Shown: positions 13,235 to 58,598, counted from the first letter of the stretch. The stretch: DNA of 64,000 nt from Candidatus Kerfeldbacteria bacterium (GCA_016214565.1 JACROE010000002.1:1048007-1112006), one strand, 5' to 3'. The notes: generated from the letters alone by a model not told the origin. Program-made: numbers and translations.

Positions 13235-13702
13235 CTATTTCCTTAATTTTGATGGTAGCTCAATAAAAACAGATAGCGGTATTACTTGTTTTCGGCGGTA
13301 TCGTTCAATAGCCGCCAAAACATTGTTACTGCGGATTTTACCTTGCTTCGCCAATGCTTTAATTTCATCGTATGAAAACCATTGTATTGCTGGATGTTCA
13401 GATGTAATTCGCAACCTCCCGCCAATAATTTTAGAAACTACCACAGGAGCTATCAGAGTATTGCCCCGCTGAGTAAGCCGCACCTGATAGATGCCAATTA
13501 ACTTGGTTGGTTTAACTCGAAAACCAGTTTCTTCAAACGCCTCCCGGGTGGCACATTCTACGATCGTTTCTCCTAGTTCCATATTACCAGCTGGAAAGTT
13601 ATATTGACCACGAACAAAGTATTTTGATTCCTGAACGAGCAAAAACTTACCGCCACGGCTTATCAGATTACATACTGCAATAAATACTCCGCGTCTTCGC
13701 AT
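13235..13702 (-). CDS. NUDIX hydrolase
   Basis: 155 aa. Nudix box G-x5-E-x7-REAFEETG (GNMELGETIVECATREAFEETGF). Inserted between mraY and murD. Confidence 0.8.
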   Translation of the reverse strand: MRRRGVFIAVCNLISRGGKFLLVQESKYFVRGQYNFPAGNMELGETIVECATREAFEETGFRVKPTKLIGIYQVRLTQRGNTLIAPVVVSKIIGGRLRITSEHPAIQWFSYDEIKALAKQGKIRSNNVLAAIERYRRKQVIPLSVFIELPSKLRK

Positions 13703-14759: not shown

Positions 14760-15161
14760 CTATAACGTGTTCTGACGCATAATCAAGTAACTGGCAACAA
14801 CTAACAGAACCTGACAGGCAAGAGAAAAACTAAGTTGTAATCGAGACAAAATAAAAGACTTTTTATGAAGCTGCCGGGCAAAAATTATATTAAGTATCAT
14901 GATGCCAGTACCTATTGCCGGCATCAAAAAAATTCTGTACCATTGGCCAACAAGGTCTACCCCAAAGTAAATGTTATAATGTAAGTACATAACCTCTTCA
15001 TACGGGCTGACGACCAATGCCAGGTATATCCACTGACCAACATTAAATGCCAATCCGGCTGCAATAAGCAGAACCGAAACCCGATCGCGAGAAAGAAATG
15101 GGTCGCGCCGTGAAACTAATCGCTTGAGTAGTGAAACAATATGCATTATCGTAAAATTCAA
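14760..15161 (-). CDS. membrane protein, hypothetical
   Basis: 133 aa with 3-4 TM helices. Its start region overlaps the divergent GT39 gene start. The real start may be Met6 at 15146. Confidence 0.4.
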   Translation of the reverse strand: MNFTIMHIVSLLKRLVSRRDPFLSRDRVSVLLIAAGLAFNVGQWIYLALVVSPYEEVMYLHYNIYFGVDLVGQWYRIFLMPAIGTGIMILNIIFARQLHKKSFILSRLQLSFSLACQVLLVVASYLIMRQNTL

Positions 15162-16925
15162 ATACTTGCAGTTATACTATTGCTAGGCGGAATGCTCGCA
15201 CTAGAGATATCATCTATTCGTTTAGAAACACAGACAACAGATGAAGGGGCGCATTTAGCAGCAGGCTACAGTTACTTAGCAACGGGCGATTTCCGTCTCA
15301 ATCGAGAGCACCCGCCGTTGATCAAGGAGTTAGCAGCGCTACCGCTGTATCTGATACATCATTCTCTAAATCAGCCATTTAATTCACAAGCTTGGAGAGC
15401 GTCAGATCAATGGCTATTTGCGAAAAACTTTTTATATTATAATCGAATTTCTGCTGATACGCTATTTTTCCTCGGGCGCCTACCGATCATGTGCCTGAGT
15501 CTACTGCTTGGCTGGTGGATATTCCGTTGGACCAAAGAAATGTTCGGCACGCCAAGCGCTTTTATTGCGCTTATATTTTACGTACTTGACCCTACTATTA
15601 TTGCGCATAGTCGGTATGTTACGACCGATCTGGCCTTGACGCTCTGCTTCTATATCACCATATATTATTTCTATAAATACCTCAAGTTTGGCCAAGTGCG
15701 CTGGTTAATTGGTTTTTGGGTGGTTTTTGGCATTGCCCAAGCGAGCAAGTATTCTGCAATTTTTCTTATTCCAATTATCCTAATCATGTATTTTTTGAGT
15801 TTATGGCGATCGCATGAACTAAGGGTACAGCAAACAGTGAAGAACTTTTTTCTGCTATTCGGCGGCATGGCGGCCGTGACCATAATGATACTCTCGGTAG
15901 TATACGGTTTTCAGGCACCAAAATTGATTGATGACATTTCTGTTCAAAAACTTCTTAATAAGCGCGAAGTTTTGATTGTTACTGATCAAGTAAAAAACCA
16001 GGACGTTTTAATCCAAAAAATTATTTCTCTAGCTGATCCTGCTTCTAAAAGCGGGAAAATAGTTTCTTCATTGATGCAATCAGTACCCATTCCATTTCTC
16101 CCGTATTTTGACGGATTGATCCAGGTGTACTTCCATGATTACTTTGGCCACACTTCCTACCTAATGGGAAACCATGCTGAATTTGGCTGGTGGTATTACT
16201 TTCCAGTTGCAGTCGCAATCAAAACACCAGCTATTACCTTGGTGGGACTAGCTGCGGTCATTTTATTCGGAGTGTATCGAGCTGTCCAAACGCTCAAAAC
16301 AACACGTTCTATAAAAAAAATGTTTGCACGCGTTCCTATTCATTTCTATTTTTTAATTCTACCACCGTCGATATTTTTTCTGATTAGTATGAATGGTAGT
16401 TTAAATCTCGGAATACGGCACGTACTTGTCATTTATCCATTTATTTTTAGTATTTTAGGGTGGGCTATTTACCGATTTTGGACAAACACTGGCTGGTTTC
16501 CGCGATTATTAATTATTATTGGCATGAGTTTGTACATACTTTCTTCAATAACAATTTTCCCCAACTACTTATCATATTTTAACGAATTTATTGGCGGGTC
16601 AAAAAATGGATATCGATATCTTGTCGATTCAAACAACGATTGGGGTCAGGATGTTAAAAAACTAAAAACATATTTACGGAAACATAATATACCATATGTT
16701 TGCATGGCATACTTCGGGCAAACAGAGTTAAATTATTACGGCATTGATTATCGGTATTTGCCGGATAATCAACATTTTACTTCAACAGACAACCTTAACT
16801 GCGTCGTCGCAATTAGCATCACCGCACTGTACTCAAAGGAAGGCGAATACGCTTGGTTGCAAAAATATTCACCAAATACGACGATTGGATACTCAATTCA
16901 TTTGTATGACTTTCGAAAACCCTAG
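15141..16925 (+). CDS. GT-C fold glycosyltransferase, GT39/GT83 (PMT_2/ArnT-like) family
   Basis: 594 aa with >10 TM helices. A DE motif lies in the first extracytoplasmic loop (TDEGAHLAAGYSYL), typical of polyprenyl-phosphate-sugar dependent GT-C enzymes (PMT/ArnT). Confidence 0.7.
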   Translation: MHYRKIQILAVILLLGGMLALEISSIRLETQTTDEGAHLAAGYSYLATGDFRLNREHPPLIKELAALPLYLIHHSLNQPFNSQAWRASDQWLFAKNFLYYNRISADTLFFLGRLPIMCLSLLLGWWIFRWTKEMFGTPSAFIALIFYVLDPTIIAHSRYVTTDLALTLCFYITIYYFYKYLKFGQVRWLIGFWVVFGIAQASKYSAIFLIPIILIMYFLSLWRSHELRVQQTVKNFFLLFGGMAAVTIMILSVVYGFQAPKLIDDISVQKLLNKREVLIVTDQVKNQDVLIQKIISLADPASKSGKIVSSLMQSVPIPFLPYFDGLIQVYFHDYFGHTSYLMGNHAEFGWWYYFPVAVAIKTPAITLVGLAAVILFGVYRAVQTLKTTRSIKKMFARVPIHFYFLILPPSIFFLISMNGSLNLGIRHVLVIYPFIFSILGWAIYRFWTNTGWFPRLLIIIGMSLYILSSITIFPNYLSYFNEFIGGSKNGYRYLVDSNNDWGQDVKKLKTYLRKHNIPYVCMAYFGQTELNYYGIDYRYLPDNQHFTSTDNLNCVVAISITALYSKEGEYAWLQKYSPNTTIGYSIHLYDFRKP

Positions 16926-31100: not shown

Positions 31101-32387
31101 ATGCGACTTCGCCACCGTAGAATATATTTTATCATTATGACGCTTGCCTTTTTTTTAGCGGCGCCAATTTTAATAGGTTATGGAATAGGTTGGCGATATA
31201 ATTCTACATCTCGGCATTTAGAAAAAGTTTCAGCGTTAAGCATTACTTCAACTCCACGCGGCGCGTCGGTCTATGTTAATAATGAACTTCAACAAAAACA
31301 AACGCCATTTTCAATTAATCATCTGTATGCCAGTAACTACCAGGTAAAACTCGAGAAAAGCGGATATTACGCTTGGGAAAAAAATGTGCGTACATACGCA
31401 GATCGCGTTACCCGTTTGCCCAATGCGTACCTTGTCAAAAAACAAAATTTTGAAGCGAGCATTCTTACCACCCCCATTGAATCAATGTATGTATCTCCCT
31501 CGGGCTCACGAATAATGATAGCTCATCAACTGGAGTTAACAGCTTATTTGCAAACAGGCATTCGTCAGTGGGAATACAGATTACCTGCTGAAGTCGCAGA
31601 CATTCAATGGTCGGCAGACGAATCACTGCTGTTGGTTACCACGGCTTCATCTTCCACTCCCCTGGTGATTAATTCATACGATGGCAGCCGCAGCAATTTT
31701 GCATTACCTGACACAGGTACCATATATGAATATTTCTGGTCTCAGGATGTCGGCACTATCCTCTACTGCCGAACCAATCAGGCTGTGTACGAAATAAACT
31801 TAGCCAGACAAATAACACAGCAACTCCCTGAGCCACCAATCCAAAAATATGGAGATACTTCGCTTCGAATAATGAGAGATTTGGAATTAGCGACCTGGGA
31901 AACAAGTGATGGAGAACTCATAGCGAGCTTACCAGTTCCCATTTTGCATACTTTAAAAATTGTTGCATCGGGTCATTTCTTGTTTGTTCAGGATGCAACC
32001 AATCGCTCATTATTTACGATTGATGTGCAAACACGCCAATCAAAACCACTTGGGAAAAACATTATTGCCACAATGTGGGGAGCAGAACGAAAGCAACTAT
32101 TGTATGCATCATCAAATGAACTGTGGCTCTACGACCCTCAAACCGTTACCCAAGAACTAATATTGCGTACCTCGCAGGAAATCACGAACGCTCAACTTAT
32201 GATCAATGATCAATACATTGGCTATGTGCCCGGCGGACAAAATCTTACTCTTTTTGAAATAAGCGATTTGCCTCGTAACACCTATGTTCTGCCAACAGAT
32301 AAAACAACCGGTTTGGTTACCTTGCCAAACCGAATGACGGCATATCTCAGTACTGAGACTGAAGTTTTCCCACTTGTTTTTGAGTGA
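31101..32387 (+). CDS. membrane-anchored PEGA-domain / beta-propeller-like protein, hypothetical
   Basis: N-terminal TM helix (IYFIIMTLAFFLAAPILIGYGIGW), a PEGA motif (TPRGASVYVNNELQQKQTPF), and TolB-like repeat segments (WSADESLLLV, WSQDVGTILYC). Divergent from murA. Confidence 0.55.
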   Translation: MRLRHRRIYFIIMTLAFFLAAPILIGYGIGWRYNSTSRHLEKVSALSITSTPRGASVYVNNELQQKQTPFSINHLYASNYQVKLEKSGYYAWEKNVRTYADRVTRLPNAYLVKKQNFEASILTTPIESMYVSPSGSRIMIAHQLELTAYLQTGIRQWEYRLPAEVADIQWSADESLLLVTTASSSTPLVINSYDGSRSNFALPDTGTIYEYFWSQDVGTILYCRTNQAVYEINLARQITQQLPEPPIQKYGDTSLRIMRDLELATWETSDGELIASLPVPILHTLKIVASGHFLFVQDATNRSLFTIDVQTRQSKPLGKNIIATMWGAERKQLLYASSNELWLYDPQTVTQELILRTSQEITNAQLMINDQYIGYVPGGQNLTLFEISDLPRNTYVLPTDKTTGLVTLPNRMTAYLSTETEVFPLVFE

Positions 32388-32390
32388 TAT

Positions 32391-33116
32391 CTAGGAATCA
32401 GCTTTCTGCTGTTCACGCGCGGCGATATAATTCCCCGCCTCGAGCAGTGAATCAAAAGTACCGGCGTCAAACCATTTTCCCTCAATAACACGCACGTCAA
32501 GTTCGCCAAGCTCTAAATACCGTTTATGCAATTCCGTTATTTCAATCTCTCCGCGAGCCGAGGGGACGACTTCCTTTGCAAATTGTGAAACACGATTATC
32601 AAAAATGTAGAGCCCAGGAATAGCATAGTCGCTGATCCACTGCTGTGGCTTTTCTACAATTTGTATAACTTTTTTATGTTCATCAAACTGTACAACGCCT
32701 AAACGCTCAGGATCTGGAACTTTTTTTGCAAAAATACGGCCACCCTTCTTAAATGACTGTAGTGCCTCGGTAAAATTATCCTCAAAAATGTTGTCCCCCA
32801 ATATCATTGCCACTGAATCATTATTCAAAAAATCTTCGCCAACGATAAATGCATCAGCAAGACCTCGTGGAGTTTCTTGTATCTCATAGGTAAATTTCGC
32901 GCCAAATTCCTTGCCCGATCCGAGCAAATGCAAAAAATGACCAGCATACTCAGGCGCTACAATAATCAATATTTCTTTAATGCCTGCCTGTAGTAACGTT
33001 TCGAGCGGATAGTAAATCATCGGTTTATTATAAACCGGAAGTAGCTGTTTACTAGTTATTTTGGTGAGTGGTCGAAGCCGAGTCGCCCGGCCACCAGCTA
33101 GGATAATGCCTTTCAT
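32391..33116 (-). CDS. rfbA: glucose-1-phosphate thymidylyltransferase
   Basis: MKGIILAGGRATRLRPLT... is the G-G-x-G-T-R-L motif. 241 aa, short RmlA-type. Confidence 0.85.
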   Translation of the reverse strand: MKGIILAGGRATRLRPLTKITSKQLLPVYNKPMIYYPLETLLQAGIKEILIIVAPEYAGHFLHLLGSGKEFGAKFTYEIQETPRGLADAFIVGEDFLNNDSVAMILGDNIFEDNFTEALQSFKKGGRIFAKKVPDPERLGVVQFDEHKKVIQIVEKPQQWISDYAIPGLYIFDNRVSQFAKEVVPSARGEIEITELHKRYLELGELDVRVIEGKWFDAGTFDSLLEAGNYIAAREQQKADS

Positions 33117-33120
33117 ACAA

Positions 33121-33681
33121 CTAAGAATTACTCATGGTAAAAGGAAATTCACGGCCGGAAAGCGGCTCTAGTGCCGCATCTTTATCTGACAAAATTGCAT
33201 CAGACATTGGCCAATCAATGTGCAACGTAGGGTCATTCCATATGATACCACTATCGTATTCTGGTGCATATGGATTGTCCACTTTGTAGAGGAATTCAGT
33301 ATGTGGCTCGAGCGTCAGAAAACCATGAGCAAAACCGCGTGGAATGTACAGCATGTTAAAATTCTCGGCTGATAATTCAAATGATTCCCATTGGCAAAAG
33401 GTTTCCGAATCTTTCCGAAGATCAACAATAACATCAAAAACTTTTCCCGCTGTTACCCGGACGAGCTTTGCTTGAGTAAACGGTGGAAGCTGAAAATGTA
33501 AACCACGGAGTATCCCGGCGGATTTTGAAAATGAATGGTTGTCTTGAACGAACGCTCGGGTGATTCCATGCCGGACAAACGTACTCTGAAAAAAAGTCTC
33601 CAAAAAAAATCCGCGTTCATCTTGAAATACTTTTGGAATGATAAGCCAGGCGTCTTTAAATTTTGTAGGTTTAAATTCCAT
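33121..33681 (-). CDS. rfbC: dTDP-4-dehydrorhamnose 3,5-epimerase
   Basis: 186 aa cupin. RGLHFQ and HGF motifs. Confidence 0.85.
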   Translation of the reverse strand: MEFKPTKFKDAWLIIPKVFQDERGFFLETFFQSTFVRHGITRAFVQDNHSFSKSAGILRGLHFQLPPFTQAKLVRVTAGKVFDVIVDLRKDSETFCQWESFELSAENFNMLYIPRGFAHGFLTLEPHTEFLYKVDNPYAPEYDSGIIWNDPTLHIDWPMSDAILSDKDAALEPLSGREFPFTMSNS

Positions 33682-34519
33682 GTGAAATGAATTCTGCTAA
33701 TGCTGTTTGCCACGATCTCATGGCCGGTAACTTGGTGTTGATTAAAATACCATAGGCGGGTCGTACCGCTGGACGGGGAAATACGCTCCCGGGCACTGCT
33801 GCCAGTTTAGCACTAACACCAGCTAATTTAAATATTTCCTGTGCAAAACCAAACCAGGTACAGGACCCGATATTTGTAACATGGTAGGTGCCAAATGGCA
33901 ACTGAGAATCTACAATATACTTACTCTGAACGGCGAGGTCTGGGGCATACGTCGGACAAGATACTTCTTCGTCAATTGCTTGAACGACCGAGTTCGTTTG
34001 GGCTCGCTCAAGTATTTTGTGCACAAAACTCTTCTTGCCAGATTCCCCAATCCCCGGCTTACCAAACAATCGGGATAATCGAATAATGTAATAGCGTTGT
34101 GTCCGCTCTCGTACTCGCTGCTCCCCTCGGTATTTTGATCGTCCATATGCTGACTGAGGGTCGGGCTGATCAGCCTCGGTATAGCCCTTTTCCTGATTGC
34201 CCCTAAAAACGTATTCCGTGCTGTAATGCACCAGAATGCCCCCCACAGCGTCTACTGCCTGGGCGAGGTATCCTGGAGCCTCCCCATTAACAAAATTAGC
34301 TATAGAGGCGCTTTTTTCAGCTCCATCAACGTCGTTATAAGCAGCGGCATTCAAAACAATGTTTGGCCTTAATTCCCGGATCTTCTGAGTAACCATAGCT
34401 TGATCCGTAATATCCAACTGTTCACGATCCCAACACTGAGGTTGCTCATTATTAAAAGCTTGAGCAAGTTCTTGCCCGAGCATGCCTTGTGCTCCAATAA
34501 TCAAAATAGTTCGTTTCAT
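33671..34519 (-). CDS. rfbD: dTDP-4-dehydrorhamnose reductase
   Basis: 282 aa SDR-like fold with an N-terminal ILIIGAQGMLG Rossmann motif. Located between rfbC and rfbB. Confidence 0.85.
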   Translation of the reverse strand: MKRTILIIGAQGMLGQELAQAFNNEQPQCWDREQLDITDQAMVTQKIRELRPNIVLNAAAYNDVDGAEKSASIANFVNGEAPGYLAQAVDAVGGILVHYSTEYVFRGNQEKGYTEADQPDPQSAYGRSKYRGEQRVRERTQRYYIIRLSRLFGKPGIGESGKKSFVHKILERAQTNSVVQAIDEEVSCPTYAPDLAVQSKYIVDSQLPFGTYHVTNIGSCTWFGFAQEIFKLAGVSAKLAAVPGSVFPRPAVRPAYGILINTKLPAMRSWQTALAEFISHGI

Positions 34520-35124
34520 GGTACCAATTTTTCAATCGAATGGTTAGTCAGAAGCTGCAACTCTTCATGGATTGCCGCCAACCGCTCAACGCTTTTGCCA
34601 TACTGAGCAAACCGATGATAAGCCCGACGAAATGATCCAATGTGCCTACCTTGTTTTGCAGAATAGGTATTTCGCGCGTCAGCATAGGCCAGAATTTTCT
34701 CCTCAATGCTCGTCGGAAAAAAATCTCTACCAATAAATTTGTATTGCTTGCACACACGTGCATCAAGACCGGTTCCACCCATGTGCACAATACATACTCG
34801 TGCGAGTTTTTCTCCATACCCTTTACGCTTCACCAATCGGTATCCGATAAACGCATGATATGTGGCGTCCATCAATTCCACAGACGCTTTGCTTCCGGTT
34901 ACCATACGGCCGATGTCGTGCACCATGCACGCCACTTTCAAAAAGTGACGGTCAACGGGGATGCCCCGTTTCGTCAAAATTTTCGCTATTCGATCAGCAA
35001 ATTTCCAATTCAATAATGAATGGCTCCAGGTATCGCGAGCTTGTTGAGGAATATGGTGTTCGCGAGCCAATCGTGTCATCCATTTTCGAATCTCTGAAAG
35101 AGATGGTACTTTAGCGCTCTTCAT
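34516..35124 (-). CDS. HD-domain phosphohydrolase
   Basis: H...HD motif (ACMVHDIGR). The start is trimmed to the Met at 35124 (MKSAKVPS...) to avoid a 92-nt overlap with rfbB. Embedded within rfbB-rfbDCA. Confidence 0.65.
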   Translation of the reverse strand: MKSAKVPSLSEIRKWMTRLAREHHIPQQARDTWSHSLLNWKFADRIAKILTKRGIPVDRHFLKVACMVHDIGRMVTGSKASVELMDATYHAFIGYRLVKRKGYGEKLARVCIVHMGGTGLDARVCKQYKFIGRDFFPTSIEEKILAYADARNTYSAKQGRHIGSFRRAYHRFAQYGKSVERLAAIHEELQLLTNHSIEKLVP

Positions 35125-36265
35125 ACTGGCGCCGAAAATATTCCTTAAATGCCCCTGATTTAATAGGACGCCACCAGGCTTCATGCTGCTGATACCATTC
35201 AATCATTTTTTCTAAATACACATCGAGCGAATACTCTGGCTGGTATCCTAGTTCTCGCTTTGCTTTTGTCCAATCAACGGCATAGCGACGATCATGCCCC
35301 GGACGATCCTTAACATAATAAATCCGATCTTCCCCGAGCTTCATGATCTTCAAAACGCGACGAATAAGTTCTAGATTATTAACGTCATCCTCCATGCCAC
35401 CAATACAATACGTTTCACCCACCGTGCCATTATGCAATATCATATCGATTGCCCGACAATGGTCATCGACATACAACCAATCGCGCACATACTTACCATC
35501 ACCGTAGATAGGAACCTTCTTTCCTTCAAGCAATTCTGTTATTGCCAGCGGCAGCAATTTCTCAGGAAACATATACGGTCCGTAATTATTAGAAGTATTG
35601 GAAATAGTCACCGGCAAGCCAAAACTGACGCCATAGGAGCTAGCCAGATGATCCGCCGCGGCTTTTGACGCAGAATAGGGACTTCGCGGATTATAGCGTG
35701 TCTGTTCATTAAACTTATTCGGGTCATCAAGCGTCAATGCCCCAAATACTTCATCGGTTGAAATCAAATGAAACCTTTTCCCTTGGTTGTAACTACCGTC
35801 CTGCTTTCGCCAAGCCTTAACTGCGGCTTCTAACATGATATGCGTTCCCCAGGTATTTGATAAAATGAAGTCATACGCATCAGGTCGCTCTGGACCGGCA
35901 TTTAAAACCGATCGGTCGACGTGGGATTCGGCAGCAAAATGAACAACCATATCCGCTGACGCAATCCACTGCTTGAGCATTTGAAATGCTTCACGATCAA
36001 ATCGACCGTATTCATCCTCAAACTTTGCTTTTGAATAAAGAATAGGACAAGTAATATCAAATTTATGAAATTCCAATCGAGAATCTCCCTCCAAATCTAC
36101 AAGATTTGCCGGCTTTTGTATTCCAGTCTTTTCATCAGTGTATGGGTTGCCAGCGTATGACAATTTATCCAGGTTAATGATCGAATCACCAGGATATTTC
36201 GCTAACCAATATCGAATAAAATTTGATCCAATGAATCCGGCGCCACCGGTTACTAATAATTTCAT
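35111..36265 (-). CDS. rfbB: dTDP-glucose 4,6-dehydratase
   Basis: N-terminal LVTGGAGFIGSNF and catalytic YSASKAAADH (YxxxK). At 384 aa it is slightly long because of insertions. Confidence 0.85.
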   Translation of the reverse strand: MKLLVTGGAGFIGSNFIRYWLAKYPGDSIINLDKLSYAGNPYTDEKTGIQKPANLVDLEGDSRLEFHKFDITCPILYSKAKFEDEYGRFDREAFQMLKQWIASADMVVHFAAESHVDRSVLNAGPERPDAYDFILSNTWGTHIMLEAAVKAWRKQDGSYNQGKRFHLISTDEVFGALTLDDPNKFNEQTRYNPRSPYSASKAAADHLASSYGVSFGLPVTISNTSNNYGPYMFPEKLLPLAITELLEGKKVPIYGDGKYVRDWLYVDDHCRAIDMILHNGTVGETYCIGGMEDDVNNLELIRRVLKIMKLGEDRIYYVKDRPGHDRRYAVDWTKAKRELGYQPEYSLDVYLEKMIEWYQQHEAWWRPIKSGAFKEYFRRQYEER

Positions 36266-36813
36266 AAATGGAGAAAAATTTTAGCGCGGGTTAATGCAGC
36301 AATGCTTACAGCATCATTAATTTTTCCTGTTTGAACCCACCTGAATGCTTTTGAAAATGGAATGGTTGCTACTGACTGATCACTCTCCTCGGATATGGTT
36401 ACTGTGCCAACCTTTTTTAATTCTCGTGCTAAGAAAATACTGACAAGTTCATTCACGATCCCTGGACAGTCAGCCACGCGTCCTAATGATTTCCATGATT
36501 GTGCCACTAAACCAGCTTCTTCGCGCAATTCACGCTTGGCAGCCTGCAAGTAGGTTTCGCGTGGCTTCCGGCCACCCCAGGGCAATTCAAGTGTATACGA
36601 TGATAACGGATAGCGCCACTGCTTGACAAGATACAATTCTCCCGCCTTATTCAGGGCAACGATAATGCTCGATCCGGTCATATCGACCACCCCATAAATT
36701 CCCGATTTCCCATCCGGACGCACGACCTGATCCTCCCTAACCGAAATCCACGGATTGTGATAAACAACTCGCGAGGATTTGGTCTGCCAATGTCCTAACC
36801 GTTTAGGTGCCAA
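36262..36813 (-). CDS. NUDIX hydrolase (ADP-ribose/nucleotide-sugar pyrophosphatase-like)
   Basis: Nudix box GGRKPRETYLQAAKRELREEAGL. 183 aa. Sits between ahcY and rfbB. Confidence 0.8.
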   Translation of the reverse strand: MAPKRLGHWQTKSSRVVYHNPWISVREDQVVRPDGKSGIYGVVDMTGSSIIVALNKAGELYLVKQWRYPLSSYTLELPWGGRKPRETYLQAAKRELREEAGLVAQSWKSLGRVADCPGIVNELVSIFLARELKKVGTVTISEESDQSVATIPFSKAFRWVQTGKINDAVSIAALTRAKIFLHL

Positions 36814-38050
36814 GTTCCCAACTGGATAAATATTTCTTTTGCTCAGGAGTCAATTGATCTAAAGTAATGCCCATGCTCTTCAATTTCATAGCGGCAATTT
36901 TTTCATCCAAATGTTTTGGAACCGGGTACACGCTGACTGGAATATTTTTGTAAAATCGAACCAGATATTCCACTGACAATGCTTGATTGGCAAAACTCAT
37001 GTCCATCACCGATGCCGGGTGGCCGTCACCAGCCGCCAAATTAATCAGACGACCATCGGCCAAAATATGAATGCGGCGTTTATTGGGCAAGGTATACTCC
37101 ATGACCTGATGCCGCACTTCAGTTTGCTTTTTACTTATCTTCTTCAAACCAGGCAAATCAATTTCGACATTGAAGTGTCCAGAATTACATACAATAGAAT
37201 TGTCTTTCATCTTACGAAAATGTTCTGGTCGAATCACATTAATATCGCCCGTCAACGTGATAAAAATATCACCAAGCGATGCGGCTCGACTCATGGGCAT
37301 TACCTGAAAACCATCCATCACCGCCTCAATTCCTTTGACTGGATCGATCTCAGTCACGATCACATGTGCGCCCATGCCTTTTGCGCGCATTGCCGCACCC
37401 CGACCACACCAACCATAGCCAGCGATCACGACCGTTCGTCCGGCAAAGAGAACATTGGTGGCACGGATTATCCCGTCAATCGTTGACTGGCCAGTGCCAT
37501 AGCGATTGTCGAAAAGGTGTTTTGTTTTGGCGTCGTTAACCGCAATAATCGGATAGCGTAAAACTTTATGCGCAGCCATACTTTTCAGACGAATAACCCC
37601 GGTGGTTGTCTCTTCAGTACCTGCCCAGATCTGTGGTAATTGATTTTTTCGTTTTTTATGGAGCTCAGACACCAAATCAGCTCCATCATCCATGGTGATC
37701 TGTGGCTTAAAATCAAGTGCTTGATTGATATGTCGAAAATATTCTGCGTGTGATGCGCCATAACGTGCGTACACCGGAATATCGTATTCTTTCTGAAGTG
37801 CTGCCACTACATCATCTTGGGTTGATAAAGGATTTGAAGCCGCCAAGACAACGCGCGCACCTCCGGCTTTCAGGGTAATCATAAGATTTGCCGTTTCTGT
37901 CGTGACGTGCAAACAGGCGGCGATTCGAATATTGCGCAAGGGTTTCCGCTTGCTGAAGTCCTGACGGATAGTGCGAAGCACATTCATGTCTCGTTCTGCC
38001 CAGGTGATACGATTAATTCCTAATTTAAGCTGCTTCCTCGGTGTCGTCAT
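36803..38050 (-). CDS. ahcY: adenosylhomocysteinase (S-adenosyl-L-homocysteine hydrolase)
   Basis: 415 aa. NAD Rossmann IAGYGWCGRGAAMRAKGMGA, and the N-terminus matches the AhcY pattern. Confidence 0.9.
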   Translation of the reverse strand: MTTPRKQLKLGINRITWAERDMNVLRTIRQDFSKRKPLRNIRIAACLHVTTETANLMITLKAGGARVVLAASNPLSTQDDVVAALQKEYDIPVYARYGASHAEYFRHINQALDFKPQITMDDGADLVSELHKKRKNQLPQIWAGTEETTTGVIRLKSMAAHKVLRYPIIAVNDAKTKHLFDNRYGTGQSTIDGIIRATNVLFAGRTVVIAGYGWCGRGAAMRAKGMGAHVIVTEIDPVKGIEAVMDGFQVMPMSRAASLGDIFITLTGDINVIRPEHFRKMKDNSIVCNSGHFNVEIDLPGLKKISKKQTEVRHQVMEYTLPNKRRIHILADGRLINLAAGDGHPASVMDMSFANQALSVEYLVRFYKNIPVSVYPVPKHLDEKIAAMKLKSMGITLDQLTPEQKKYLSSWELGT

Positions 38051-38450
38051 ACGAATATAAATATAGCGTTAATTGATAAATAATAAAGCCTGCAACCAAA
38101 GAAATAATGACTGCAACTATACCATGATCGTGAATCCTCGTATATACCAATCCTGCACCAGCCAATGCCCAGGCGCCATTCCAGAGATGGCCGCTCTTCT
38201 TTCGCGCTGCAGCAGCTTCATCCAGGGCAATAAATGTGTAATTATTTTGCAAAATTATAACCAAAAATCCACACCCAATTGTTCCCCAAAGGAAATAATT
38301 AAATTCCAAAAAATTTCCTACAAATCCCGGCTGTATATCTTCCAATACATACAACATAAGAAAGGTAACTAGCATCACCTTAAATACTTCTCGGGCTATA
38401 AATACCGCCCACTGGAGTACCCGCTCCCCTTTTGTATTTGGGATAAACAT
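38025..38450 (-). CDS. membrane protein, hypothetical
   Basis: 141 aa with 4 TM helices. In an operon between the 570-aa protein and ahcY. Confidence 0.45.
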   Translation of the reverse strand: MFIPNTKGERVLQWAVFIAREVFKVMLVTFLMLYVLEDIQPGFVGNFLEFNYFLWGTIGCGFLVIILQNNYTFIALDEAAAARKKSGHLWNGAWALAGAGLVYTRIHDHGIVAVIISLVAGFIIYQLTLYLYSYDDTEEAA

Positions 38451-38454
38451 ATCG

Positions 38455-40167
38455 TTACTGAGATGAGCTGCCCAAATTATTTCTTATTTTTTGCATAACA
38501 TTATCAAGTGTTAATGGATCCTTATGAAATTCAAAGGTGAGACCGTGCACGAGTAATTTTTTCCGTGCCTCGGGCAAACCAGGCATAACAATAATAAATT
38601 CGGTTTTTTTGGTTTCTGCATTTGTGTACAGCATAGGGATTTCAATCGTAGCTGTTGCGTACATCCATTTCCCGCGACGTTCTACCTGCGCATATCGAGC
38701 GATAATATAATCGTACGTATCAATATTTTCCACCTCAGGCAAATCAACCACGCCAGAATACTGTGGATCAAAGAATTGATCCTGACTTACTGCAAAATAT
38801 CCATTTCCGTCAATGGTCATATCATTTTTGGGAATATAGGCATATGGTGTACCTGATAATCTACTCATAACGTACGGGGTGTTAAGATCGACCAGCGGCT
38901 GTGGCACGCCATTGAGCGTAAATGTCTGAAGCCCTTCTTCATGCTCTGTCATAAACTCTACCTTTTCTGATTTAAAATAAACGCCACTTGGACGTGTGGG
39001 GTGCGTACCAATAATGGAAGCATATACAGGATTATCAGCTAAGTATATATGATTACGGAATACGATAAGGTGTTGTTTACTCAAAATCTGCTTGATAAAG
39101 ACGTCGTTCTCCCCTGGATCAAACTTCACATGATAGAGCCCGAAGGGCAAATCATCCTGACTAATTCGAAAACGATACTCCGGCTGTCCACCATCGTTAG
39201 ATTCAGTCGTGGCGATATTGGTATCTAATTCAACCTCATCAATAAAAGTTTCAGCTGAGGAATACAATTGCAAAGTAATCGGGCTTGGATCGGTTGAGCG
39301 GGAAGCAATCCGAACCGCAAATTCGAAGTACAATGGCTCACCCTGACCAATATACGTATATAAATCATGCTGCCCGCGTAGTACTGTATTAATGACCGTA
39401 TATGACTGTTTCGGCTCATACCCAGGTAATTCATGATACAGTGACAAATCAAAATTATACTTAATAATTGTCTGCAAGTCGGGTAGATTACGCAAAAAAG
39501 AATCAATAGTAAATCTAGGGGTCACCGATTCCTCCAACGGCGTTAACTGTGCGTCACGATTCTTCGTCAACTGCTGAATTTGCGCATCATATTCGGCTCG
39601 CGTAGATTCATCAAGAGCGTCGACGGGACCAAATGACTTTTCGATAGACTGCTTTTGCAGCTCAAAATCTCTCAGAATAGATGCATACTGAGATTGATAT
39701 TCTCGATCGCGATACCAAAGAACATTGTTCCCTTCTCGCACCGGAATCCAGTACGGAGGTAGGGATTCCAAACGCGGTTCATAATATGCTAAATCGGTAT
39801 AGGCATAAGCGCCATTCGGCTGAAAAACCCCAAGTTTAATAACCTCTTGTGCGTCAGGATTTTGATATTGCAGGCCGACCTTAACCGAATTGAACAATCG
39901 AGGCGTTGTCACATTAAAATACAAAGGTGAGGCGGTGATTGCTTGAAACGATTCATCACTGCCTCCAAACGTCCCCGTCATTGTTACCGGCTCTTTTGAA
40001 GCAAAACTTGAAACAAAAGGAGACGGGTCATCAACGGTATGAGAAAACCTCATAGTGCCTGAGGGGGTAAAATTTGCAATGCCAAGATACGCCAACACAG
40101 CAACGGGAATCAACCATTTAGTGATCCGAATTATTGAAAACAATGAATTATTTTGTGGTTCTTGCAT
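38455..40167 (-). CDS. secreted/anchored hypothetical protein (570 aa), partner of adjacent GT-C enzyme
   Basis: N-terminal TM/signal (WLIPVAVLAYLGIANF). The large extracytoplasmic domain has no motif I recognise. Immediately downstream of the GT-C gene on the same strand. Confidence 0.5.
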   Translation of the reverse strand: MQEPQNNSLFSIIRITKWLIPVAVLAYLGIANFTPSGTMRFSHTVDDPSPFVSSFASKEPVTMTGTFGGSDESFQAITASPLYFNVTTPRLFNSVKVGLQYQNPDAQEVIKLGVFQPNGAYAYTDLAYYEPRLESLPPYWIPVREGNNVLWYRDREYQSQYASILRDFELQKQSIEKSFGPVDALDESTRAEYDAQIQQLTKNRDAQLTPLEESVTPRFTIDSFLRNLPDLQTIIKYNFDLSLYHELPGYEPKQSYTVINTVLRGQHDLYTYIGQGEPLYFEFAVRIASRSTDPSPITLQLYSSAETFIDEVELDTNIATTESNDGGQPEYRFRISQDDLPFGLYHVKFDPGENDVFIKQILSKQHLIVFRNHIYLADNPVYASIIGTHPTRPSGVYFKSEKVEFMTEHEEGLQTFTLNGVPQPLVDLNTPYVMSRLSGTPYAYIPKNDMTIDGNGYFAVSQDQFFDPQYSGVVDLPEVENIDTYDYIIARYAQVERRGKWMYATATIEIPMLYTNAETKKTEFIIVMPGLPEARKKLLVHGLTFEFHKDPLTLDNVMQKIRNNLGSSSQ

Positions 40168-40205: not shown

Positions 40206-41876
40206 TCAATTTCCAATCGGCACTACCCGTGTCAGATTCATCTGATCGGGCAGTATAGCGCGTTGTTCAGTCGTGAGATGACTTCGAGATAATAGTTCAC
40301 GTACTCTGACCATGTCTACATTTAAGCTATTTTCGTACACGTACAATGAGGTTTGACTGGCTACCTGGGCAAGCGCTTCAGCCGCAACTGAGCTTGAGGC
40401 GGGCAATGTTGCAATCACGCGTCGATCAGGAAAAAAGAACCGATCGGCCCCACCGGCGATAATAACGGCCTCAGACGGTGTATTTGCCAAAACTTCAGAA
40501 CGTACCTGCTCATACGTTTCTATATGCCGTTGTAACTGCATAAGTCCTTGAAGCGGATCGGCTACCGTTAAGCTTACTGACAATCCGACAATCACAAAAA
40601 CTAAAAAAATAGTTACCGCCGCCTGGTATCGCGTGGCCCATAAGCTAACGACCCATAGCATACCGCGAACAGCGATCGGAATACCCATGATAAGAATTGG
40701 CAACCAATAACGGAGATATGAAGACCCGAGCAATACTTTGGTTGGGTCAATATATTCTTTAAACGTGAAAGCTCCATAATACAATATCATCCAAACAGAA
40801 ATAATGACGAACAAACACGTATAAACTATCTCCGGGATCGTAACCGTATTTATGGTTTCAAGAGAATATAGCGTACGCCGAACCCAGCTACGAATCGAGT
40901 TAAAAAATATTAAACTCATACCCGCTATGACAAAAAGGCTGTACCACGGCATATACGCAATAAGATACGTGTAGGCCATTTGTAGGGATTGAGATAAATT
41001 AATGCCAAAAGGAAAGAAATATTGCAACCAACTCGCACCGGGATCCTGCGTACGAGAAACGGTATCGAGAGTATCACTCAGTGATGGCATGGAGTAGGAA
41101 AAAGTAAATGCTGAGCCGTACAATTCATTGTTAACAAACAAAACTGGTGTAAATACCAAAACGGCTGGAATGATAAATGATACAATTCGAGAAATAGTCA
41201 ATTGACGGCGATGCACCATTGCTATCGATCCTAAAAGTATCAGAACCCAAATAACCTCTGAAATGCGTACTGAAAATGCCATACCCAAAGCAAGTCCGGC
41301 GATAATGAAAAAAGTGTTTCTTCCACGTTCTGATTTATCAAATGCCCGCATCAAGGCAGAAAGACAGATTAACAAAAGAGAAACAAAAAGAACATTATGA
41401 AACATCCCTCGACTTGCGTAGAGCCAAAACGGTGGAAGGATCAATAAAAGCAACAGTGAAGTAATAGCAGTTACAAAGCCAAATAATCGTTTACAAATAA
41501 AGTAAAAAGACAACGCACCAATAATTGCAGCCATCGGGGTCAACCAAAGCAATGCCCAATTACCAAGTGCTGACGCTGCCATTCCATAATACAGTGGCAA
41601 TCCAATAAAACTATTTGGCACTAAATCTCCGTCGGCATTTATTTTTATACTGCGAGGATGGACGATCCCCGGGCTACCGACATTAATCGAATCATGAGCA
41701 AGCGGCATACCGCTCTCAGCCACCTTTGTCGCAAAAAAGTAATTCGCTGTTTCATCAGGAGAGGTAAATACGCTATCCCCCTGGTAGTAGCTGCCGTAGA
41801 TGCATAAAAAAAATAACAATAAAACAGCAATCGATAACGAAGCAAAAGGAATGCGGGCTTTGGCAAATGTAGTCAT
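40206..41876 (-). CDS. GT-C fold membrane glycosyltransferase (ArnT/PMT_2-like)
   Basis: 556 aa with >10 TM helices. A DE motif lies in the first loop (FTSPDETANYFFATKVAESG). The C-terminal soluble domain is ~120 aa. Confidence 0.65.
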   Translation of the reverse strand: MTTFAKARIPFASLSIAVLLLFFLCIYGSYYQGDSVFTSPDETANYFFATKVAESGMPLAHDSINVGSPGIVHPRSIKINADGDLVPNSFIGLPLYYGMAASALGNWALLWLTPMAAIIGALSFYFICKRLFGFVTAITSLLLLLILPPFWLYASRGMFHNVLFVSLLLICLSALMRAFDKSERGRNTFFIIAGLALGMAFSVRISEVIWVLILLGSIAMVHRRQLTISRIVSFIIPAVLVFTPVLFVNNELYGSAFTFSYSMPSLSDTLDTVSRTQDPGASWLQYFFPFGINLSQSLQMAYTYLIAYMPWYSLFVIAGMSLIFFNSIRSWVRRTLYSLETINTVTIPEIVYTCLFVIISVWMILYYGAFTFKEYIDPTKVLLGSSYLRYWLPILIMGIPIAVRGMLWVVSLWATRYQAAVTIFLVFVIVGLSVSLTVADPLQGLMQLQRHIETYEQVRSEVLANTPSEAVIIAGGADRFFFPDRRVIATLPASSSVAAEALAQVASQTSLYVYENSLNVDMVRVRELLSRSHLTTEQRAILPDQMNLTRVVPIGN

Positions 41877-41969
41877 AGTACATCGGTCACTATACCATTA
41901 AATATGCCCTTTTCAAAGTAAATGCTATCTGATACGATAGTAATCAATATTAAGCAAATTCAGTGATTT

Positions 41970-56195: not shown

Positions 56196-57811
56196 AATTG
56201 TGAAGCGACAAATAAGGAATAATCACCTTCTGAAAAAACTGGGGTAAGTTCCTTTGATCTGACAAGCTGGGAGTAGCGACCATACGCTCCATCAATTAAA
56301 TAAATTACGCCAGCTGTATCTATTATTTCTCGATTTTCCGAGTCTTCAAAATCAGTACTTTGAATTGGCGTATACATTAATGAGTTTAAGTCGTTTTCAC
56401 TAGCTACATAAATGCTATAAAAACTGATCGGATGAGAAATGAGAATGTCTTCAGGTTGTACATGAGTTGAAAGGTAGTTCACCAGCCCGACCGGTGGTTT
56501 TGTTATGACATTGCCACTAAAACCGATTATATTTGGGATTGAGGTTATAAATATTGCGCAGACCAATAGCGGAATAACTGATCTAAAAAGACGATAGTGC
56601 TGCATTTGATAAATCCCAAATACGGCAATAACTGGCCCAAGCACGGAAATATACAACATCGCCCGTGGCGAATTGCTTGATGGCTCAATCCCAAAATACG
56701 GACCAATCATGACAATAAACACGGAGAGAGAAATGGTCAAAGTAAACGGCAAAAAACGCGCATCAAGCAATTTCTTGGTAAATATCATCCCTAATATTGA
56801 GATTACACCAAGTAGCGCGATAATCGGGTTTACGCCAAGTCGCGATGCACCATTATCGAGAAAATATCGTGATAGATTTTGGTCAACTTTTTGGGTAAAC
56901 TGATCATACCGCCAATATTGTTCTGTAGTAACGACATGAAATATGTATGAATGAAAAAGAAACAATAAAACCGATATTCCAATAATAAAAGCAATAAGTG
57001 TTTGAAGCCGATGAATACCGAAGCGTTTATTAAGGATGTCACAGATTAGAACAAAAATTGAAAGACAAAAAGATAGTGCAAAAGGTATTTTAACGTAATT
57101 AAGCCAAAATAAATCACCATTAATTATAACTGTATTGTAATAACTTATAATTGAGGCAATGATCAGAGCCCCAGCGATTGTAATAAGATGTGAATATTTC
57201 TTTTGCCATATAAGAACGGGGATAATAAGCACAATCACTGAAAGTGCCATCGAACTGGTCAAGACATTAGTCAGTAATACGCAGCCTAAAATAATACCGC
57301 CCAAAACAATGCGTAGCCACGTGCGAAAATCAGAAATAAACTCAACGTAGACATATGAAGTAAATAATACAATAGAAAGATTCTCAGGTAAAAAAAGTGA
57401 AAAACGGCGTCCAACATAATAAGTTAAAACAGAAAATAGCACAACAATAAACCCCAAAATATTTGAAGTAAAGAGTTGTTTCCCAATCAAAAAAGAAACG
57501 GAACACAAAAGTAATAAAATAATGAAGCTGACAATATTTGCCAGCACCACATAATCAGTTACGCCGGTCATTTTTTGAATAACCGCTGAAAATGAGTACA
57601 ATAATGGTGGATACACAGAACGAATATTTCCCCAAAAATATGTATCGTGTATGAAAGTTTCTTCCGTACTGATCTTTTTAACTATGGTAAGGTGATATAA
57701 TGAGTCAAAACTTCCAGCCACATCGTTGTTTACAAAAAATAAACTAACAACCAGTATCGTAAGACTCGCCGCGATGGTGACAATAATAATTTTTTTTAAG
57801 TTAGCTCTCAT
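56192..57811 (-). CDS. large polytopic membrane protein (candidate Wzy-type polymerase or GT-C glycosyltransferase)
   Basis: 539 aa with ~14 TM helices and a C-terminal ~100-aa soluble domain. Very AT-rich. No unambiguous motif. Confidence 0.45.
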   Translation of the reverse strand: MRANLKKIIIVTIAASLTILVVSLFFVNNDVAGSFDSLYHLTIVKKISTEETFIHDTYFWGNIRSVYPPLLYSFSAVIQKMTGVTDYVVLANIVSFIILLLLCSVSFLIGKQLFTSNILGFIVVLFSVLTYYVGRRFSLFLPENLSIVLFTSYVYVEFISDFRTWLRIVLGGIILGCVLLTNVLTSSMALSVIVLIIPVLIWQKKYSHLITIAGALIIASIISYYNTVIINGDLFWLNYVKIPFALSFCLSIFVLICDILNKRFGIHRLQTLIAFIIGISVLLFLFHSYIFHVVTTEQYWRYDQFTQKVDQNLSRYFLDNGASRLGVNPIIALLGVISILGMIFTKKLLDARFLPFTLTISLSVFIVMIGPYFGIEPSSNSPRAMLYISVLGPVIAVFGIYQMQHYRLFRSVIPLLVCAIFITSIPNIIGFSGNVITKPPVGLVNYLSTHVQPEDILISHPISFYSIYVASENDLNSLMYTPIQSTDFEDSENREIIDTAGVIYLIDGAYGRYSQLVRSKELTPVFSEGDYSLFVASQL

Positions 57812-58598
57812 TCTTTTGGATCAGTACAAAATATTGGGAAGCGAAATGGTGCCCAAAAAATGTACGGTATACCCGTTCTATAATGCCATAGGCCTGCTTG
57901 TACAGACGGGGCAACCCCCCGGTTGAGGGAATGTGGTAACTGGGAATGCGGCGCACGATCGTCGCCGGAGCAACTAATTTCTGAAACTTACTGGCGGTAA
58001 AAATTTTTGGATTAATCGTGCCCTGGTCATGCCGATGGGTCGAAAATTTTGTTGCTTTTCGAACAAGTGGTCCAAACGCGGACAGACTGTGGTAATTGGT
58101 CATCTCGAGAATGACATATTTTTTTGAAACTCGCAGCATTTCAGCAACCGCTTTTCGGGGATCTTCTAAATGCATAATCACGTGTACCGAATAAACCACG
58201 TCAAACGTATTGTCAGCAAATGGCATGGCATACACATCTCCCTGAACCGGGGCTACACTCGCTTTCGCCTGAGCAATACTGAGCATTTCAGATGATTGAT
58301 CAAGTCCCGTTAAATTGGTGAAACCTGCCTGGTGTAACGTTTCCAAAAAACGACCAGTGCCACAACCAGCTTCAAGAATCTTCAATTGCCTGCCGCCAGC
58401 TGAGGCAAGTAGTTCCATCAACGCATCCGCTTGCTTCTGATGGATCATTCTGCCAAAATTGTCACGAAACCGGTGCTGGTCATATTGAACAGCCTCCTGG
58501 TCGTAGAATGAATTTATATATTGGTCATTCAGTTGCTTGCTCATATAGGGAGATATACCGCTTACCAATTTGGTCAAGATCAAATTGGGCCGATTCAA
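57801..58598 (-). CDS. class I SAM-dependent methyltransferase
   Basis: Motif I ILEAGCGTGRF and motif II FDVVYSVHVIMHL. The start may be an internal Met (58514), which would reduce the 74-nt overlap with the upstream GT4. Confidence 0.75.
   Translation of the reverse strand: MNRPNLILTKLVSGISPYMSKQLNDQYINSFYDQEAVQYDQHRFRDNFGRMIHQKQADALMELLASAGGRQLKILEAGCGTGRFLETLHQAGFTNLTGLDQSSEMLSIAQAKASVAPVQGDVYAMPFADNTFDVVYSVHVIMHLEDPRKAVAEMLRVSKKYVILEMTNYHSLSAFGPLVRKATKFSTHRHDQGTINPKIFTASKFQKLVAPATIVRRIPSYHIPSTGGLPRLYKQAYGIIERVYRTFFGHHFASQYFVLIQKNES

Follow-up and report, generated by a model that had tools for sequence, protein, structure and literature searches.

The synthesis of deoxythymidine diphosphate (dTDP)-rhamnose follows a four-enzyme textbook pathway (RmlABCD) that is an antibacterial target, and to our knowledge no dedicated turnover enzymes have been described for it. 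Bacteria of the Candidate Phyla Radiation (CPR, Patescibacteria), which make up a very large share of bacterial diversity, spend dTTP on surface glycans. In this study, a stretch of 64,000 nucleotides (nt) from the ultra-small CPR member Candidatus Kerfeldbacteria bacterium (GCA_016214565.1 JACROE010000002.1:1048007-1112006; hereafter the window) was analysed for a dTDP-rhamnose operon in which a NUDIX hydrolase and an HD-domain phosphohydrolase are embedded among the rml genes. Similar to the canonical rmlBDAC (rfbBDAC) clusters, the operon contains genes for all four pathway enzymes, three of them above their equivalog cut-offs, but it differs from them in the order B-(HD)-D-C-A, in the two hydrolases and ahcY that are interleaved, in a short RmlA and in an insertion in RmlB.

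One of the closest described arrangements is the colanic-acid operon of E. coli, in which the Nudix hydrolase WcaH/Gmm (NudD) is embedded and co-transcribed with nucleotide-sugar genes, and has been proposed to limit the GDP-mannose flux by destroying the activated sugar (PMC10037897). However, WcaH belongs to a single-domain subfamily that cuts the sugar-phosphate bond to release GDP and mannose in the GDP-mannose/fucose pathway, whereas the window NUDIX is of the two-domain type of ADP-ribose pyrophosphatases (ADPRases) and nucleoside diphosphate (NDP)-sugar pyrophosphatases (NDPSases), and would be expected to produce a nucleoside monophosphate (NMP) and a sugar-phosphate. Nucleotide-sugar operons with embedded hydrolases are of a known kind, and the one described here includes an uncharacterised HD family.

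Nucleotide hydrolases in rml and mur clusters

Seven genes had been named in a preliminary description of this locus, and all of them were found among the open reading frames (ORFs) called in the window, on the minus strand, with the identities and the order (ahcY, NUDIX, rmlB, HD, rmlD, rmlC, rmlA) borne out by coordinates and family matches. The adenosylhomocysteinase AhcY is encoded at 36803-38050 (TIGR00936, 606.6 bits vs. a cut-off of 497.6), followed by the NUDIX hydrolase at 36262-36813 (183 aa, TTG start; PF00293, 2.9e-11) and by the dTDP-glucose 4,6-dehydratase RmlB at 35111-36265 (384 aa; TIGR01181, 382.1 vs. 365.1 bits). The metal-dependent HD-domain phosphohydrolase (202 aa; PF01966, 8.7e-09) is encoded at 34516-35124 within an ORF of 34516-35202, and is followed by the dTDP-4-dehydrorhamnose reductase RmlD at 33671-34519 (TIGR01214, 244.8 vs. 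224.05 bits), the dTDP-4-dehydrorhamnose 3,5-epimerase RmlC at 33121-33681 (TIGR01221, 223.2 vs. 155.75 bits), and the glucose-1-phosphate thymidylyltransferase RmlA at 32391-33116 (PF00483, 4.8e-61). RmlB, RmlC, and RmlD all scored above their NCBIfam equivalog cut-offs; RmlA, with 296.1 bits vs. 360.65, fell below because this short protein of 241 aa ends about 50 residues before the C-terminus of most solved RmlAs. Its best PDB matches were all RmlA, and it aligned to residues 1-243 of the 297 in 4ho0 (2.7e-81). The assignments of AhcY and of the four Rml proteins are regarded as firm. As had been described, most junctions overlap or are a few nt wide, with overlaps of 11 nt for ahcY/NUDIX, 4 nt for NUDIX/rmlB, 14 nt for rmlB/HD, 4 nt for HD/rmlD, and 11 nt for rmlD/rmlC, and a gap of 4 nt between rmlC and rmlA.

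To place the operon among its relatives, more than 140 loci were collected from context look-ups, from a scan of GTDB species genomes for matches to the HD alignment and from a search of metagenomes with RmlD, and relatives' loci were compared by tblastn with the window proteins. The ahcY-to-rmlA cluster of the relatives carries three variable slots. The first one, between ahcY and rmlB, holds a NUDIX with an NDPSase_N domain in the window and in L002, L005, L006, L007, L063, L081, L083, L090, and L111, a different NUDIX of 160 aa in L080, a YfbR-like HD_3 protein (2.3e-29) together with an FdtA-like cupin in L065, and an alpha/beta hydrolase in L068. The second slot, between rmlB and rmlD, holds the window-type HD gene or nothing, and in a few relatives a DAGK/YegS-like lipid kinase (L077:729-1592 and L078:270-1136), a DUF3830 protein (L082:2898-3302 and L083:5522-6007) or an IS200 transposase (L010:7352-7858). 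The third slot, between rmlD and rmlA, is occupied by rmlC, by a short MutT-like NUDIX of about 146 aa (L010, L064, L065, L066, and L067) or by other small genes; the NF011963 profile was matched only by the short NUDIX of L065, and weakly.

When ORFs of at least 80 aa were counted, a Nudix box was present in 16 of the 48 accessory ORFs inside the clusters (33%) vs. 2 of the 286 outside (0.7%), a count that is inflated because the loci share ancestry. Roughly 18 types of accessory genes were tallied, among which at least three unrelated families of NUDIX proteins and two of HD proteins are represented; the HD_3 protein of L065 and the window HD have the HD motif in common and are otherwise unrelated. 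The recruitment of NUDIX and HD genes into rml clusters appears, on these comparisons, to have been independent. Judged from the gene content of the clusters, nucleotide hydrolases are non-randomly associated with the rml pathway, and the association is recurrent; of all findings on the locus, this one is the most informative.

Both types of hydrolase were also found by the mur genes. A short MutT-like NUDIX of 155 aa is encoded at 13235-13702 on the minus strand (PF00293, 6.6e-18), between mraY and murD of the dcw cluster, where a NUDIX had been reported in the preliminary description, and it is 35% identical (E 1e-20) to the short rml-cluster NUDIX of a relative (L065:6887-7327). In L003, L004, and L009, orthologues of the HD protein with 42-44% identity are found singly between murC and murG, on the opposite strand. 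Both hydrolase types thus alternate between the rml and the mur clusters, the two that consume nucleotide sugars for the envelope.

The synteny search for the rmlB-HD-rmlD arrangement recovered it in about 12 related patescibacterial loci, down to 42% HD identity. It is kept in L001, L002, L005, L006, L007/L072, L065, L068, and L111, and the HD-rmlD pair is kept in L008, L064, and L069, which lie on truncated contigs, as well as in L010, where the IS200 transposase splits rmlB from the HD gene and the 4-nt HD/rmlD overlap persists. Over the whole set, the HD overlaps of 11-14 nt and 4 nt persist down to 42-47% HD identity. In about 15 more distant clusters, rmlD directly follows rmlB. In a neighbour-joining tree of RmlD, the HD-bearing clusters formed one clade plus the outlier L010, with the HD-less L063, L066, L067, and L071 nested inside, a pattern that fits one old acquisition, long retention and few losses. 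The NUDIX was always found between ahcY and rmlB or directly 5′ of rmlB, and the form with the NDPSase_N domain is directly upstream of rmlB even in the distant clusters L063, L081, L083, and L090, the last of which carries no ahcY. The rmlB|rmlD junction as a whole is an insertion hot-spot among the relatives.

Features of the NUDIX and HD proteins

Members of the dimeric ADP-ribose/NDP-sugar pyrophosphatase family, to which the window NUDIX belongs, split NDP-X into NMP and X-phosphate. The window NUDIX carries the superfamily signature GX5EX7REUXEEXGU as GGRKPRETYLQAAKRELREEAGL at residues 80-102, and with this intact canonical box it is predicted to be functional. In the public annotation (P0017, 139 aa) the protein begins at an internal Met, which removes the N-terminal NDPSase_N domain; the true start is placed at TTG 36813, overlapping the ahcY stop, because homologues of about 179 aa carry NDPSase_N, and the orthologues contain both PF28549 (NDPSase_N) and PF00293. 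Residues 9-174 aligned with residues 6-173 of the M. tuberculosis ADPRase (1mk1, 3.2e-18), and further PDB matches were the Bdellovibrio NDPSase Bd3179 (5c7q, 1.6e-17) and the B. methanolicus protein ACT (8zr8, 1.8e-13), with weaker ones to NudF, NudK, NudE, and NUDT5. With these ADPRases and NDPSases (1mk1, 5c7q, NudF/NudK/NudE, and ACT) the window NUDIX shares the domain-swapping N-terminal sheet, the Nudix fold and an EE-x-D loop, which lies at residues 142-145 (SEESDQ) and aligns with the loop of the M. tuberculosis enzyme, while a position by rmlB has not been described for them.

The marker of ADPRases is a proline that follows the last Gly of the Nudix box by about 15 residues, and that of hexose-preferring NDPSases is a D-x-K motif on helix alpha-3 (PMC4629899). 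The window NUDIX has, besides the N-terminal domain, a Pro at G22N+16 that aligns with the marker Pro of the M. tuberculosis ADPRase, and the 'CPG' is kept in all CPR orthologues. In contrast, the D-x-K of the GDP-mannose/UDP-glucose-preferring enzymes is replaced by D-A-V (N-D-A-V in the window, D-A-V or D-A-T in the CPR orthologues), with the Asp retained and the Lys absent. Scores against the NudE and YffH-AdpP equivalogs stayed below the cut-offs, with 61.8 vs. 169 bits for NF008736 and 40.4 vs. 79.55 bits for TIGR00052. Homologues from outside the CPR, at 45-47% identity, have a box one residue longer and no marker proline. By homology, then, the protein is an NDP-X pyrophosphatase of the ADPRase type.

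The HD protein probably starts at ATG 35124 rather than at TTG 35202, because the NCBI call begins there and the first 15 residues are kept in homologues. A word search yielded 16 homologues, and the H...HD...D signature of the superfamily was found, with H35, H69-D70, H90, H114, and D149 invariant in 16 sequences; the family alignment contains 32 invariant columns, including all metal ligands and the motifs HDIGRMxTG, CxxHxGGTGL, and EEKxxxYxD, so that the HD protein, too, looks functional. The protein, judged from this alignment, has the complete H...HD...H...H...D set typical of binuclear metal phosphohydrolases and belongs to a small uncharacterised family. Its AF2 model (pLDDT 89.4) is all-helical and soluble, and the best solved folds were the HD domain of PgpH (TM 0.52, prob 1.00) and HD-GYP proteins. 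Consistently, a profile search of PDB sequences returned PgpH (E 0.0023) and the HD-GYP protein V-cGAP3 (E 0.064), both marginal, and a single-sequence search against PDB chains gave no significant match.

PgpH carries an extracellular domain and a seven-transmembrane (7TM) module before its HD domain, with the ligand set H..HD..H..HH..D. The window HD resembles PgpH and HD-GYP proteins in the HDIG-type HD domain, in the six-residue binuclear ligand set and in being matched best to their folds and profiles, but it is a soluble stand-alone protein of 202 aa that has neither the 7TM module nor the HH pair nor the GYP. Its model has no N-terminal module of the PgpH kind, and the profile alignment places the family's HxGGTGL on the HHExxDGxGYP of HD-GYP proteins, where C-x-x-H-x-G-G-T-G-L offers one His, no Glu and no Tyr-Pro. 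No match to the PF13023/PF12917 profiles of the YfbR-like HD_3 type was found for the window HD. The best NCBIfam match was TIGR00295, an archaeal stand-alone HD family that also occurs fused to aTrm56 in PRK12703, with residues 59-217 of the 228-aa ORF translation aligned to positions 15-162 of the 164 in the profile; however, the score of 62.6 bits is far under the cut-off of 172.35, the family is itself uncharacterised, and its archaeal relatives are not found by sugar genes. Literature searches on HD proteins with dTDP-rhamnose, on HD proteins in Patescibacteria and on TIGR00295 found nothing relevant.

An exhaustive profile search found 917 representatives of 50%-identity clusters at E ≤0.001, and 11 at E ≤1e-30. 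Most members come from CPR, DPANN, and other archaea. At about 30% identity, the relatives belong to DPANN, other archaea, and Nitrospirota. Some relatives (P0143-P0151, P0287, and P0288; L144:7001-8059) are fused to a conserved N-terminal domain with the motif EWSEDPPFGDDRHY. Nothing was found by Pfam in the extra 110-145 N-terminal residues of P0143-P0158, so the extensions give no Rosetta-stone clue, and the contexts of the fused relatives were one exopolysaccharide (EPS) cluster (WecG, EpsH, and Bac_transf) and two uninformative loci. A 302-aa MazE/AbrB-like gene is the divergent neighbour in two of the fused-HD loci.

Weighing the possible functions

The reading that we tentatively favour, while holding it somewhat short of probable, is that the two hydrolases serve the nucleotide-sugar metabolism of the envelope, where they would control pools or take part in salvage. 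The unit would then be a lineage-conserved envelope-glycan operon with a GT-C glycosyltransferase, two putative envelope proteins, AhcY and a complete RmlABCD pathway, into which two accessory nucleotide hydrolases were inserted and kept. In the metabolism of envelope precursors, both of them would work on the nucleotides: NDP-sugars that are in surplus or have reached a dead end, or else ADP-ribose, would be hydrolysed by the NUDIX to NMP and sugar-phosphate, the HD protein would hydrolyse a nucleotide-type phosphoester, and together they would limit or recycle the nucleotide tied up in activated sugars. CPR bacteria are presumed to be nucleotide auxotrophs that rely on scavenged nucleotides, so such limitation or recycling would matter to them. 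Precedents are given by WcaH in the colanic-acid operon and by NUDT22, which hydrolyses UDP-glucose for pyrimidine salvage (PMC10101856). If the recurrent recruitment holds, it would show how CPR cells balance nucleotide economy against envelope synthesis, and would provide the uncharacterised HD family with a function that can be tested.

The preliminary description had gone further and proposed built-in turnover or proof-reading of the dTDP-sugar pathway. The association itself has proved real and recurrent (16/48 vs. 2/286), but the mechanism and the specificity for dTDP are unproven; for dTDP-sugars or dTDP/dTMP as substrates no support was obtained, as the NUDIX is ADPRase-like and the HD protein has no characterised close relative. 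That the two form a dedicated reclaim-and-proofread module, in which the NUDIX splits dTDP-/NDP-sugars and the HD protein processes the nucleotide product or a signalling nucleotide, is considered unlikely. Were it true, the module would keep scarce thymidylate from being stranded in activated sugars, and with this family an HD enzyme would, for the first time, be dedicated to a nucleotide-sugar pathway.

The hydrolases could instead be passengers, the NUDIX being an ADPRase in detoxification or in adenine salvage with AhcY, and the HD protein a housekeeping enzyme, in a streamlined genome that strings unrelated genes together; this is possible, although we regard it as doubtful. Several observations weigh for it, or against a tie to nucleotide sugars. 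Genes overlap throughout, about 98% of the window is coding sequence, and 43 of the 53 same-strand junctions are ≤10 nt (32 overlap, median -4); since tight junctions are general here, co-transcription is weak evidence of shared function. Likewise, the whole 14-kb neighbourhood is syntenic in relatives and includes a PEGA-domain gene, murA, ctp, an acylphosphatase gene, rplI, and pyrG, so position alone is weak evidence. The HD gene occurs mostly in one clade and may represent a single insertion that persisted, and it is absent from the otherwise equivalent clusters L063, L066, L067, and L071; the NUDIX is absent from L001, L065, and L068, all of which have ahcY and rmlB, so that both genes were lost in some relatives. 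No homology-based link of the NUDIX to dTDP compounds is apparent, since the protein looks closest to ADPRases in its best solved relatives and marker proline and has no D-x-K, and its homologues outside the CPR sit in unrelated contexts. In one relative (L010), a PfkB-family kinase precedes ahcY with a 4-nt overlap and is possibly an adenosine kinase, which would hint at adenosine salvage.

The wider HD family points the same way. Among 46 distant HD relatives, the neighbours included no sugar genes and showed a weak DNA-repair/tRNA theme; by the archaeal and Nitrospirota HD genes (L011-L060) stood Ogt (6), EndoV (4), Endo-dU (3), TFIIE-alpha (5), and SpoU (2), which hints at a role in nucleic-acid or nucleotide sanitation. 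However, a passenger status does not readily explain three NUDIX and two HD types at three slots with a Nudix box in 33% of the accessory ORFs inside vs. 0.7% outside, the NUDIX that stays by rmlB in L090 where no ahcY is present, or the alternation of the HD gene and the short NUDIX specifically between the rml and mur clusters. If the hydrolases were mere passengers, the locus would be an instructive warning on inferring function from operons in streamlined genomes.

It is also conceivable, though quite improbable, that the HD protein, as a degenerate PgpH or HD-GYP relative that stands alone, degrades a cyclic (di)nucleotide such as cyclic di-AMP (c-di-AMP), and so couples messenger turnover to envelope operons. 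The nearest folds and profiles, the alignment of HxGGTGL to HHExxDGxGYP, the invariant six-ligand binuclear set and the presence of the HD gene in rml, mur, and EPS clusters are in line with this idea, and in monoderm bacteria c-di-AMP is linked with the homeostasis of the cell wall. However, with a TM of about 0.5 and 14-16% identity the resemblance is weak, the protein has neither the second His, Glu, and GYP of HD-GYP nor the 7TM module and HH pair of PgpH, and a literature search on c-di-AMP in CPR found nothing. A scan for DAC/GGDEF/EAL motifs was empty, and since it covered 64 kb of 1.1 Mb it is uninformative.

ADP-ribose, which arises when NAD+ breaks down, competes for binding at NAD sites. 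By analogy with ACT, which activates an NAD-dependent dehydrogenase purely via hydrolysis of inhibitory ADP-ribose (PMC12926040), the NUDIX might clear ADP-ribose and so shield the NAD+-holding AhcY and RmlB, as ACT does for methanol dehydrogenase. The homology to ACT and to ADPRases and the constant place of the NUDIX beside rmlB would suit such a role, but inhibition of AhcY or RmlB by ADP-ribose is without evidence, the short rmlD|rmlA NUDIX and the HD gene are left unexplained, and L001, L065, and L068 have kept ahcY and rmlB without the NUDIX. We consider this explanation very unlikely.

AhcY is a general enzyme that recycles S-adenosylhomocysteine (SAH) and serves all methylation, and EvaA, a dTDP-sugar 2,3-dehydratase, is about 470 aa long. 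A role in sugar modification, with the NUDIX as an EvaA-like dehydratase or with AhcY serving rhamnose O-methylation, has next to no likelihood: sugar 2,3-dehydratases do fall within the Nudix superfamily and take the RmlB product as substrate, with two Nudix-fold domains per subunit in EvaA (PMC8987622), and a class I methyltransferase is encoded at 57801-58598, in the window and outside the operon, but the EvaA-like dehydratase was rejected on the 183 aa, the single Nudix domain, the hydrolase box and the end-to-end ADPRase alignment of the NUDIX, and the O-methylated sugars suggested in the preliminary description found no support, as the operon and every related cluster examined were without a methyltransferase.

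Probable transcription unit and neighbouring genes

The seven genes are co-directional as had been described, but the unit is larger, with ten co-directional genes on the minus strand from 41876 to 32391 (about 9.5 kb), whose neighbours overlap or are separated by gaps of ≤38 nt. Upstream of ahcY, it is extended by three genes. The first gene of the unit, at 40206-41876, encodes a GT-C-type (PMT_2-like) membrane glycosyltransferase of 556 aa (PF13231, 1.1e-07), which is kept upstream of ahcY in relatives. It adjoins a gene at 38455-40167 for a 570-aa protein with no Pfam or NCBIfam match, syntenic at 26-65% identity in L001, L002, L005-L007, and L010, and found at 31-36% identity in metagenome loci, e.g. 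L065, L067, L068, L071, L072, L075, L076, and L111. The third, at 38025-38450, encodes a membrane protein of 141 aa with no family match; the gene shares 26 nt with the start of ahcY and is kept in L002, L005, and L007.

Co-transcription of the ten genes is likely from this layout. The best promoter-like site for the minus strand, at 41889-41916 (TTGAAA, a 16-nt spacer and TG-TATAGT), matches the consensus and is the candidate promoter of the operon; as it ends 12 nt before the ATG of the first gene, a near-leaderless or very short-leader transcript would be implied. A terminator-like hairpin with a 9-bp stem, 5 G-C pairs and a T-rich tail lies at 32308-32333 on the same strand, 58 nt past the rmlA stop. 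Internal promoters or terminators separating the genes would have no intergenic space, and, with no such gaps existing, no promoter-like hit falls in one; in the operon region, 35 promoter-like hits were counted vs. 28.2 ± 5.6 in shuffled sequences, which is no enrichment, and the internal ones are at chance level.

In RmlB, residues 41-103 stand in for about 32 residues of solved RmlBs in the PDB alignment, a lineage-specific insertion with a net gain of about 30 aa, and a second small insertion follows the VDRS motif; RmlB of the relatives has 355-382 aa. The insertion did not correlate with the presence of the HD gene among the relatives, as L063 has a long RmlB and no HD gene. Two types of RmlA were found in the same slot, one with 74-84% identity to that of the window (L001, L063, L064, L067, L068, L071, and L111) and the other with 46-51% identity (L002, L005-L008, L065, L066, and L069). 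As the types do not track the similarity of the neighbouring genes, xenologous replacement of RmlA among the relatives is suggested.

The ahcY gene is upstream of rmlB in about 17 related loci. A 146-aa FdtA/WxcM-like cupin is encoded between ahcY and rmlB in L065:3167-3607 and L071:4247-4687, and between ahcY and the NUDIX gene in L002, L005, L006, and L111. Some of the cupin-bearing loci (e.g. L065) have no rmlC in the cluster, as is the case for many other relatives, and the cupin-bearing lineages may make a dTDP-sugar other than L-rhamnose.

In the dcw region, the short NUDIX gene is directly followed downstream by an ORF at 11029-13170 on the minus strand, which encodes a protein of 713 aa in which an alpha/beta-hydrolase (Hydrolase_4/Abhydrolase_1, residues 23-250) is fused to MurD, and secA lies downstream of murB. 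In E. coli, mutT adjoins secA at the end of the dcw region, so the placing of a NUDIX gene by the dcw cluster may be ancient. On the plus strand, at 15141-16925, a second GT-C gene of the PMT_2 type adjoins the dcw cluster.

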